UHGV virus genome: UHGV-0264998
Source of the DNA: a virus
Reading direction: 5' to 3' (one strand)
Length of the DNA: 10,155 bases
A program made the position numbers. Shown piece by piece: positions 1 to 3,000 of this stretch (the first letter of the stretch is position 1; each line of letters begins with the position of its first letter).

Positions 1-3000
1 CTAGTGGGCTAAACATCTTTTGTGCCGGGTGCAAACCCGGCGCAGCGAGAACTCATCACCCCGGATAAACAACGCCCAGCCCTTGGTTTTGTTGGCGGTA
101 GCTCGCCAGCATCGCGTTCATGCTGCTAGGCGACAGCCCACACAAACGCCCAGCATGGTAGCCACCCTCAGCAGCGTTAGCAGAGCGATGCACCACAGCA
201 CGCACGCGCCCGGTTCGGTGGCAGTGATCCAGCACGGCAGACGCAAGGCGCAGCGGCTTACCTGTCACCGCACAGCGTCGGTATTGATAATTCCACAGGA
301 AGACACGGACAGCGGCCACATCAGCGCGGCGCAGCTCCAGCCGCCCGGAACCATTCAACAGGAAGCGATACACATCTTCGAATACAGCAGCATTTGTAAT
401 CCGTTCAGCCAACGGCATGTTGCCGAGGTGTTCCAGATAGCCCCTCATCGCTTTTCTTAATAGCTGGTCTGTCCGTGTAACCATGATTCAAAGTCTCCAT
501 TGTCAGATGAAGCCCGCTTGCAGGCTTCGTATTCTTCGCACTGGCGTTGGCATACCAGAGCATAAAGCTCATCAGCCACCGCATTTACGCGCCCATCACT
601 GATACCGTTGCGACGCATCAGCCCCAGCAGCTTACGAAATTCAGCTTCAAGCTCAGGCTCTCCGGTATCAATTACCCACTGTTTCAGGTCAGCGAGTGCG
701 CCAGTCATTGGCGGCGGCTCGATGTACCGCCACCTTAATTTAATCGTGGTTATCATCTTCTTTATCCTCTCTGTAAGCCGGGTGCATTGCCCGGTATTGC
801 TCAATGGTCAAACCCTCGCTGGCCGCTGTAAGCCGTTCCTTTTGCTTACCCGCCAATCGCAAGGCGCTGTCTCTCCAGCAGAGCAGAAAGAAGATGGTCA
901 GCACCTGTTTACTCAAGCCATCCAGAAGATCGCCAAGCCCTTGCTCCAGCATACAGGCACGCCATGCAGCGGCGTGCTCCGTCATAGTGCCGACTATCGG
1001 GACTGGTGCGCCAAGCATCGTCGCGAGCTGGCTCATTACGCTGTTAGCGTCTCCCGGATGCAACCGGGGGACAGTCATCCGGCCAGCCTGCGCCAACAGT
1101 TCGGCGTACCGCTGGCGACGTGGGTCATCATCTGGCAGCACTCGGATTGCTCTACCCTGCTTTTTAGTCCCCATAAACTACGTCTCCAAAGTTTAAGCAG
1201 CATTTAACAAATCGACTGGGGTCGAGGGATGGTATCTGGCTTTTGCTTTCAGGTAAGCAGCACGCGCCGCCGCTTCGCTAGTGAATAAGCCAAGGTGATG
1301 GCGTACACCATTAACGCGAATGTAAGCCTCCCATTTGCTACAGCCCTTATTCCAGCTACAACCCTTTGCCCTGCGTCGGTTCTGGTCGTTTTCCCGCTGC
1401 GTAACCAAGCGCAGATTGCATAGGCGGTTGTCGTCACGGATACCGTTGATGTGGTCAACTTGCAGACCATCAGGAATAGCGCCATGCGCAAGAATCCACG
1501 CCACGCGGTGGGCTTTTAGCTGGTACTGCTTGCCATCCAGTCGCAGGGCAACTTGACGATAGCCATCAGCTCGACGGGTGGAGTCAGCACAGGAGCCAGC
1601 CTTAACCCGGCGTCGGTTAGCTTTATGGTGCAGGCGACCTGTCACCGGGTCGTACAGGAAAAGGGATCGCAACAGCTCAGGGGCGTAAGTATCATTAACC
1701 ATGACCCAGCCCCTCCAGTTACGCAGATTGTCGGAAATTGATAACGCAATCAGGACGACGCAGCCCAACGTTGAACAGGCGATATGAGTCCATCACCACC
1801 GTCATTTCGCGTTCATCATCCCACTGGCGATTGATGACGCTCTGTGCTTCGACCGTCAACAGTACCGAGGAGGGTTTAAACAGCGTCGCCCTCGTCAGCG
1901 CTTCCTCTGCGGTAACGTCATAATCAGCGCCCAGCTCATGCCCGGTAATGGCTTCCTGCGGGTAACTGTTCAGCTCAATGACTCGCACCCCGGCCACGTA
2001 ACCGATGCGCCGCCACGCGTAATCGTTGCCACTATCCCGGCTATAACGGACGTTCATCAGCTTCTTGTGTTCCATCAGGATGCTGAACCAAGCCGGGTCG
2101 ATGAGAAGACACAACTCCACCACCGGAATATCTTTCTCAGTCAGGAACCGATCAACAGCAGCTTTGATAGCGTGAACCAGCTCTTTTGCGGCGTCCTCTT
2201 CGCTCCCCGCTGTCAGGTCGAGCGAGACAACATTGCCCGTAAGCGGGTTAAACGTTGGTTGCAGTGTCGGCGGCGGTACAAAGTCAGTCGCTTTGATTAA
2301 CTGGATGGTGTGCGCTTCGTCGTAAAACTTCGCATGGGCTGTCCCCATGTTGCGGCTCAGCTCGGCGCGAAAGGTGGGTGCAGTCCAGTCATCTTGATAA
2401 TCAATCGGGATGCGGATATAGCTCAGAGTATCCACAGAGATGATCAGCTTGTCCGACTTAACGGCGGTAGGCTCCAGCGATTGCCCTGCGGTTCTGCCCT
2501 TCACCTCAAGATCACCACTCAGGCGATCAATGCGGTATTGGTTGCTGCCTTTCAGCGGCCTGTATGTAGACAGCCCCTCGGCCAGAAATACGGATTTGGA
2601 CTCTAAACGGGTCTGGACATCCCGGTCATAAGCCTCGATGTGAATATCATTGTCGGATTCCACCCCGCCATAATGTGGGCGAAACAGATCGGGACTGTAC
2701 GAAGTATCAGCCATAAACAAAACTCCTACGTAGGTTGATGAAGCCCGCGCCATCGTCATGGCACAGACGTGCGGAATCCTCCCGCCGAGGCAGGATTCAG
2801 AACGGTATCGATTAAAGGGAGGAGGTGCCCCGAAATGGGCGTTTTGAGGCCAGAGCTGGCGCGGTTCTCAGGGGTTAGTGCGCGTGAAGTAAGGCGAACG
2901 TATTACCTTGCATTAGTGCGCACTCATACGCGCCATGTTCAACACCTTCCGCACAGAGGTTTCAGACACGCCAACCTTGCTTGCAATGTAACGATTCTTC

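Follow-up and report, generated by a model that had tools for sequence, protein, structure and literature searches.

A gene of UHGV virus genome UHGV-0264998 in the stretch analyzed here (10,155 nt in full, called the window; coordinates refer to it unless another sequence is named) raises a question about phage endonuclease VII (endo VII): can such an enzyme give up its structural zinc site and still work as a nuclease? Judged by its sequence, the encoded protein is an endo VII homologue by descent and a zinc-knuckle-less variant, not a canonical zinc-knuckle endo VII. The explanation that we favor, at a little better than an even chance, is that it is an active branched-DNA nuclease that descended from phage endo VII, lost the zinc knuckle and serves the integrative island in which its gene resides. 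The gene is the following:

56–484, minus strand: endo VII-family coding sequence of 142 amino acids (aa), with an ATG start and a stop codon at 56–58, as given in the list of open reading frames (ORFs)

Membership of the endo VII family, proposed in a preliminary description of the locus, was borne out by an alignment to the Pfam model. The protein matches PF02945 Endonuclease_7 over aa 63–109 with a score of 27.6 bits (E = 2.7e-6), above the gathering cut-off of 23.6 bits, and it matches PHROG 423 (phrog_423, ‘endonuclease VII’) at 9e-16. This assignment is not new, as the name ‘endonuclease VII domain-containing protein’ is already found in public annotation. A search of the PDB with the single sequence gave no endo VII match, and the family profile alone reached entry 1e7d, weakly (E = 0.24). 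The strings quoted in the preliminary description are all present (RRCAVTG at aa 69–75, LDHCH at aa 85–89 and VHRSANAAEG at aa 98–107). A plus-strand ORF at 20–460 was rejected as a shadow ORF, since both the homology and the purifying selection sit in the minus-strand frame. A PADLOC scan of the endo VII protein returned no match, and a reading of the gene as part of a defense system was dropped.

The register of the protein relative to T4 endo VII (PDB 1e7d and 1en7) was determined with a family-profile alignment and an independent MAFFT alignment, and both agreed. The positions that form the zinc site and the active site of the T4 enzyme correspond to the following residues:

272–274, minus strand: codon of C71, at T4 C23 (zinc ligand 1)
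263–265, minus strand: codon of T74, at T4 C26 (zinc ligand 2)
218–229, minus strand: DHCH motif (D86–H89), with D86 at T4 D40 (catalytic metal), H87 at T4 H41 (catalytic), C88 at T4 D42 (not essential) and H89 at T4 H43 (catalytic)
200–202, minus strand: R95, at T4 R54 (active site)
188–190, minus strand: codon of H99, at T4 C58 (zinc ligand 3)
179–181, minus strand: codon of A102, at T4 C61 (zinc ligand 4)
176–178, minus strand: N103, at T4 N62 (catalytic metal)
167–169, minus strand: E106, at T4 E65 (conserved position)

In T4 endo VII (gp49; PDB 1en7, 1e7d and 2qnc), one zinc ion is held by C23, C26, C58 and C61, and the catalytic metal by D40 and N62. H41 and H43 take part in catalysis, R54 is located in the active site, and D42 is not essential (PMC6083498). 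The pattern of CX2-4C, DHDH and CX2C is conserved across 313 homologues (PMC6083498), so the CxxC...CxxC zinc motif that the preliminary description had given was correct. Three of the four T4 cysteines are T, H and A in the protein studied here. Exactly one Cys is therefore left (C71), a His occupies one position (H99), and the remaining two carry non-ligand residues (T74 and A102), in agreement with the earlier remark that the canonical cysteines are mostly missing. In both alignments, the structural zinc site CX2-4C...CX2C is absent. The Cys of the DHCH motif (C88) is located at T4 D42, outside the ligand positions. The catalytic signature D-H-x-H...R...N is intact (D86, H87, H89, R95 and N103), and E106 is present as well.

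The same combination of a replaced zinc site and a retained active site characterizes a whole clade of proteins, referred to below as the island clade. A search of 5.8 billion proteins yielded 65 homologues, and all of the named ones come from Enterobacteriaceae (Escherichia, Enterobacter, Cronobacter, Citrobacter, Klebsiella and Phytobacter). Residue conservation was counted over the 59 full-length members of the clade, which are 45–98% identical. C71, H87, H89, R95 and N103 are found in all 59 members, D86 in 56, and E106 is invariant or nearly so. Position 74 is T in 57 members and S in two, position 102 is A in 57 and W in two, and H99 is kept in 54, with S, D or Y in the other five. No conserved substitute Cys/His quartet was found among the 59 members. 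C88 is replaced by D or A in five of them and is equally common in zinc-containing relatives (as DHCH), 17 members lack C115, and H110 and H19 vary; these four residues were ruled out as replacement zinc ligands because of their poor conservation. The deepest proteins that share the N-terminal extension of the clade (described below) read CSSW (P0066), CTSA (P0067) and CSDW (P0068) at the four ligand positions, and since S or D replaces H99, even this residue would be dispensable in them. A minority branch (P0043, P0054 and P0064) has NHCH in place of DHCH, a shortened knuckle (‘VTAPNV----CRI’) and Y-C in place of H-R at positions 99–100; it may be inactive or may differ in function.

Selection on the gene was analyzed against nine loci from E. 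coli, Enterobacter, Trabulsiella, Kluyvera and Kosakonia. For aa 1–108, the Nei–Gojobori ratio of nonsynonymous to synonymous substitution rates (dN/dS) was 0.02–0.17, with a dS of 0.10–0.26 for eight of the loci and 0.67 for the ninth (L012). Purifying selection on this part of the protein is strong. In the assembly collection, 55 blocks from several genera contain the identical protein. The invariant catalytic residues and the low dN/dS over aa 1–108 together make an inactive relic unlikely.

It also became apparent that the loss of zinc ligands is not confined to the island clade. In a search of 1.84 billion cluster representatives with the clade profile, 276 proteins were found at E ≤ 1e-3, and the best 150 of these 276 representatives are endo VII-type proteins or fragments of the island clade. 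Outside the island clade, the ligand pattern was CCHC in 87 domains and CCCC in 41, and ligands 2 and/or 4 were lost, as in C[ST]H[AVI], in 27 domains (called zinc-less here), or ∼15% of the distant representatives. Both ligands were lost in 26 of the 27, and the intermediate state, in which ligand 4 is still Cys, occurred in one. The joint disappearance of ligands 2 and 4 is the pattern expected of a site that is kept whole or given up altogether. A second search added 120 further relatives, mostly on podophage-sized contigs of ∼42 kb, and almost all of these had CCHC, with six zinc-less sequences among them. When the ligand columns were masked, the zinc-less sequences included one coherent group (‘...GVLHRGVNSLLGKIEN’) and several lone sequences whose nearest neighbors are zinc-containing. 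Such isolated sequences among zinc-containing neighbors argue for repeated independent loss, and the zinc site has probably been lost several times in the family.

The genomic positions of two zinc-less relatives bear on what these proteins do. P0257 (CTDV at the ligand positions, with intact catalytic residues) is encoded in the canonical endo VII slot of a metagenomic phiKMV-like podophage contig, between putative exonuclease ORFs that follow the DNA polymerase on one side and the ligase, single-subunit RNA polymerase and portal on the other, and no second resolvase was called on this contig. P0078 (CTHI) adjoins a 5′–3′ exonuclease. These positions give indirect support to the view that zinc-less versions perform the normal endo VII job. 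The metagenomic zinc-less relatives (P0257, P0074, P0085, P0215 and P0078) share with the protein studied here the coupled loss of ligands 2 and 4 (C[ST][HD][AVI]) and an intact catalytic D-H-H-R-N set, but they have no N-terminal extension, keep a basic tail and show a change of E106 to Leu (the ‘...LLGKIEN’ subgroup). These relatives and the island clade probably lost the site independently of each other. The closest relatives from cultivated phages are annotated endo VII proteins of phiKMV-like Autographiviridae, at 32–41% identity, and the 715 matching phage records are led by Klebsiella, Pseudomonas and Escherichia phages. The endo VII proteins of LKA1, phiKpS2, RSB3, XAJ24, VSW-3 and Titan-X all have CCHC or CCCC sites, and H99 therefore corresponds to the His ligand of the ancestral CCHC site. 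In the searchable literature that was covered, we found no description of a zinc-less endo VII or of this type of island; neither the conserved zinc-knuckle-less endo VII lineage nor the recurrent joint loss of ligands 2 and 4 has been described so far in that literature.

The protein can be divided into four parts:

341–484, minus strand: N-terminal helical extension, aa 1–48 (helices 4–21, 25–30 and 32–43; predicted local distance difference test score (pLDDT) of 87–97)
239–340, minus strand: helix 1 (aa 53–66) and zinc-knuckle remnant (aa 69–78, RRCAVTGKPL), aligned to T4 residues 15–31
164–238, minus strand: beta-beta-alpha-metal catalytic core, aa 83–107
59–160, minus strand: variable C-terminal segment, aa 109–142 (loop and helix 119–132, with a conserved Y-P motif at the end)

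Overall, the protein resembles approximately the first 105 residues of T4 endo VII, comprising helix 1, the knuckle, the beta-beta-alpha core and a helix that ends in aromatic-Pro, with ∼26% identity in the core. The C-terminal helical subunit-swapping domain of the T4 enzyme (residues ∼105–157) is absent, the protein ending at the YP motif (T4 residue ∼105), and in this comparison the 48-aa N-terminal helical extension is found only here. The extension is restricted to the island clade and the deeper members P0066–P0068, and the endo VII proteins of T4 and the phiKMV-like phages start where aa ∼49 lies in the present protein. No DNA-binding family was detectably similar to the N-terminal domain. 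The phiKMV-like endo VII proteins (Pseudomonas phage LKA1 gp33 and those of Klebsiella phage phiKpS2, Ralstonia phage RSB3 and Xylella phage Prado) are similar in size to the protein studied here, and the folded part ends with ‘YP’ in both. However, the phage proteins have no N-terminal extension, their zinc site is of the CxxC...HxxC (CCHC) type, their C-terminal tail is basic, and they are encoded in a lytic replication module beside an exonuclease, whereas the present gene resides in an integrative island. The C-terminal segment aligns to T4 residues ∼85–105 and to the phiKMV-like ‘YPxH’ motif. It occurs as several very divergent alleles, with a dS of at least 1.1 or saturated in seven of the nine loci, and G112, Y129, R130, G135, Y140 and P141 are kept within it. 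The megablast match to E. coli ends at nt 161, the boundary of this segment. The recombination breakpoint in the 3′ end of the gene is accounted for by the variable cargo slot that adjoins it, in the gap between the endo VII and integrase genes.

Structure prediction with AlphaFold from an alignment of 20 clade sequences gave a pLDDT of 61, with values below 50 in the core, and the model was unusable. With an alignment of 140 sequences, the pLDDT was 93 and the predicted template modeling score was 0.88. The predicted elements of the core are a helix at 53–66, strands at 83–87 and 93–99, and helices at 100–106 and 119–132. The beta-beta-alpha-metal fold of this model can be superimposed on solved endo VII, and its best solved structural match is T4 endo VII, followed by zinc-less Cas9 HNH domains. 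A Foldseek search of the PDB gave weak scores, with T4 endo VII and Cas9 HNH domains among the matches, and the top structural match in BFVD was the endo VII of Xylella phage Prado. Zinc-less His-Me fingers are common in the superfamily, and many His-Me finger nucleases function without a zinc knuckle (PMC5714182). In Cas9 HNH and other knuckle-less His-Me fingers, the core is steadied by surrounding helices and not by structural zinc (PMC5714182). However, these nucleases belong to a different sequence family, with a central Asn in the HNH motif and without DHxH...R...N, so the relationship is only a distant one.

The endo VII gene, by comparison with its relatives, is part of an integrative island of ∼15 kb inserted at tRNA-Leu, the ends of which were read in the E. 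coli relative L001 (9798–24626). In this relative, 25-nt exact repeats of the 3′ end of tRNA-Leu(CAA) lie 14,804 bp apart, and a tyrosine integrase adjoins the distal repeat. In relatives, the integrase is located just beyond the left end of the window. A related element was found in 148 of 5,426 complete E. coli genomes. The gene order of the island, endo VII included, is kept in all 13 loci examined: integrase, variable cargo, endo VII, two small unknown genes, HNH_3 nuclease and major capsid protein, followed by a small helix-turn-helix (HTH) protein, a Q/A/D-rich 228-aa protein, several small genes, a superfamily 2 (SF2) helicase and a serine recombinase. The contents of the cargo slot differ by copy (a hypothetical gene, an NmeDI-type restriction enzyme with a C5 methylase, or an insertion sequence element). 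The gene directly upstream of endo VII overlaps with it:

457–804, minus strand: gene without an assigned function in the ORF list, 99 aa in the annotation of relatives

The end of this gene and the start of endo VII share 28 nt, and the same overlap is present in the annotation of E. coli and of loci L016–L019, which suggests translational coupling of the two genes. A GGAG sequence is located 10 nt upstream of the endo VII ATG, and no convincing promoter or terminator was found near the gene.

In the mechanism that we propose, D86 and N103 would hold the catalytic divalent metal and H87 would act as the general base that activates water, with H89, R95 and E106 in supporting roles. Like T4 gp49 and the enzymes of the phiKMV-like phages from which it descends, the protein would most probably be a Mg2+-dependent, structure-selective nuclease, acting as a dimer on branched DNA such as four-way junctions and Y-structures. 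These substrates would arise as the ∼15 kb island replicates, and the cutting would take place before or during packaging. The knuckle would be held by side-chain packing of T74 and A102 in place of zinc, a proposal that we infer from the small polar residue (T/S) at ligand position 2 and the small hydrophobic residue (A/V/I) at position 4. Extra support may come from the aromatic-rich ‘FLWNYQY’ segment that precedes C71 and from the N-terminal three-helix extension.

The protein is probably an active enzyme in our view, and several points weigh against it. The main counterargument comes from T4 endo VII, the C23S and C61S mutants of which are inactive and do not bind DNA (PMC6083498). The equivalent of C61 is Ala here, so activity would need compensation. 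The T4 C-terminal domain and the basic tail are missing and an N-terminal domain is added, so the substrate preference could differ. The confidence of the AlphaFold model is borrowed from zinc-containing homologues, and the model is silent on stability in the metal-free state. Moreover, no zinc-less endo VII was found in an isolated, cultivated phage, and for the zinc-less queries P0074 and P0215, identity to isolated phages never exceeded 60%.

Other explanations assign the protein a different task, a different metal site or no activity. The N-terminal domain might direct the nuclease elsewhere, to a homing or site-specific function resembling that of F-CphI, to the packaging site together with the HNH neighbor, or against a helper, by damage to the replicating DNA of an infecting podophage. 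We consider such targeting unlikely. For the anti-helper form, a precedent for a satellite nuclease used against its helper exists in the PLE nicking nuclease, which reportedly attacks the replicating DNA of ICP1. The 48-aa helical extension is specific to the clade and stands in place of the basic C-terminal tail of the phage enzymes, the endo VII gene is located exactly at the recombination boundary beside the variable cargo slot, and the island has no recognizable terminase, yet it encodes an HNH_3 nuclease two genes from endo VII. The F-CphI homing endonuclease of cyanophage S-PM2 likewise has an extra domain on the N-terminal side of its endo VII motif, and it demonstrates that this motif, once joined to a further domain, can serve sequence-specific homing (PMC6083498). 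However, F-CphI differs in that both zinc motifs, CX2-4C and CX2C, are retained and in that it is encoded by a free-standing homing gene (PMC6083498). The endo VII gene does not have the appearance of a stand-alone homing cassette, being syntenic, and apparently translationally coupled, in every island copy examined. The N-terminal domain shows no detectable resemblance to DNA-binding families, and the elements of the T4 dimer are kept (helix 1 and the post-core helix with ‘YP’), which fits a dimeric structure-selective enzyme.

The preliminary description had also raised a different metal-binding arrangement. A structural metal might be kept in a rearranged site formed by C71 and H99 with C88, C115 or water, or by C71/H99 pairs between subunits. 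Endo VII enzymes are dimeric (PMC5714182), C71 and H99 are retained in 59 and 54 of the 59 clade members, respectively, despite the loss of their partners, and the pair of ligands 1 (Cys) and 3 (His) is the commonest among the zinc-less phage-type relatives (C[ST]H[AVI]). The conservation pattern does not back this arrangement and makes it improbable to us. Only C71 is invariant besides the catalytic histidines, there is no conserved third or fourth ligand (C88, C115, H110 and H19 are all replaceable), H99 gives way to S or D in P0066–P0068 and to D, G, T or L in other zinc-less lineages, and position 4 is a small hydrophobic residue, as packing rather than ligation predicts. Simple loss of the structural zinc site appears to be the better reading. 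A catalytically dead protein, retained for DNA binding only or in decay, is in our judgment very improbable. It would be in line with the inactivity of T4 C61S, with the degenerate members P0043 and P0054 (NHCH and YC for DHCH and HR) and with several truncated or frame-shifted fragments, but D86, H87, H89, R95, N103 and E106 are invariant or nearly so, dN/dS in the core is low, and the exact protein is widely repeated in the assemblies. A pseudogene or inactive relic was ruled out as a candidate on the basis of the dN/dS values and the invariant catalytic residues. Of the earlier wording ‘divergent or inactive’, the first adjective is supported and the second is not.

Alongside the reading of the protein as an active nuclease that serves its island, the other genes of the island deserve description. 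Those in the window to which a family or a putative role could be assigned are the following:

1193–1768, minus strand: HNH_3/phrog_99 nuclease, immediately downstream of the capsid gene; PADLOC ‘homing endonuclease’, 2e-9
1719–2759, minus strand: major capsid protein, 55–57% identical to capsid proteins of E. coli, Kosakonia and Pantoea phiKMV-like podophages
2913–3326, minus strand: 137-aa protein with a weak HTH_23 match, between the capsid and 228-aa genes
3466–4152, minus strand: 228-aa Q/A/D/G-rich protein upstream of the capsid gene, a putative scaffold by its scaffold-like position and composition
6057–7901, minus strand: 614-aa DEAD/DEAH helicase; PADLOC PDLC02858 ‘DpdF’, 1e-274 over the whole model
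9102–9788, minus strand: serine recombinase, Resolvase and HTH_7; phrog_125 ‘DNA invertase’

The phages used for the capsid comparison were Lidtsur, glasur, J8-65, Kc261 and LIMEzero, and the capsid protein traces to the podophage lineage that also supplies the nearest endo VII relatives. Genes for a portal, a terminase or tail proteins were not found in the window, and neither the putative scaffold nor the 137-aa HTH protein had a tblastn match in 50,697 phage genomes. The longest ORF of the HNH_3 nuclease overlaps the end of the capsid gene by 50 nt, and relatives are annotated with a shorter form of 169 aa. The DpdF label of the helicase probably over-extends; models of the Dpd system (7-deazaguanine DNA modification) matched none of the nine further window proteins that were scanned. 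A stretch of ∼1.2 kb (7902–9101) that separates the helicase from the serine recombinase contains no long ORF, is unannotated in the E. coli relatives and is only patchily conserved; an origin or a regulatory region could be located there. The serine recombinase shares the element with the tyrosine integrase that is seen in relatives. Across the whole window, megablast matched no phage, and neither Rfam families nor tandem repeats were found.

Taken by its gene content, the island is a possible satellite of Autographiviridae. A more specific proposal, which we put forward as speculative and rather unlikely, is that it represents an undescribed satellite of Enterobacteriaceae that exploits lytic phiKMV-like podophages and has its own podophage-derived capsids, together with a zinc-free, extended endo VII specialized for the satellite. 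If this were true, the satellite endo VII would debranch satellite concatemers for packaging or attack the replicating DNA of the helper, and the variable C-terminal helix might prevent mixing with, or co-inhibition alongside, the helper's own endo VII.

Structural zinc is a textbook part of T4 endo VII and its loss by mutation is inactivating, and the island clade, a natural lineage that is widespread and under strong conservation, has discarded three of the four ligands while keeping the active site. Together with the other zinc-less lineages, the clade suggests that the knuckle is dispensable in the endo VII scaffold, and it offers a minimal junction-nuclease core, independent of the structural metal, for structural and engineering work. 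The setting of the gene points to a little-studied class of integrative elements, with genes for capsids and DNA processing that are borrowed from lytic podophages, and the island may prove to be a more interesting object than the endo VII variant that it encodes.

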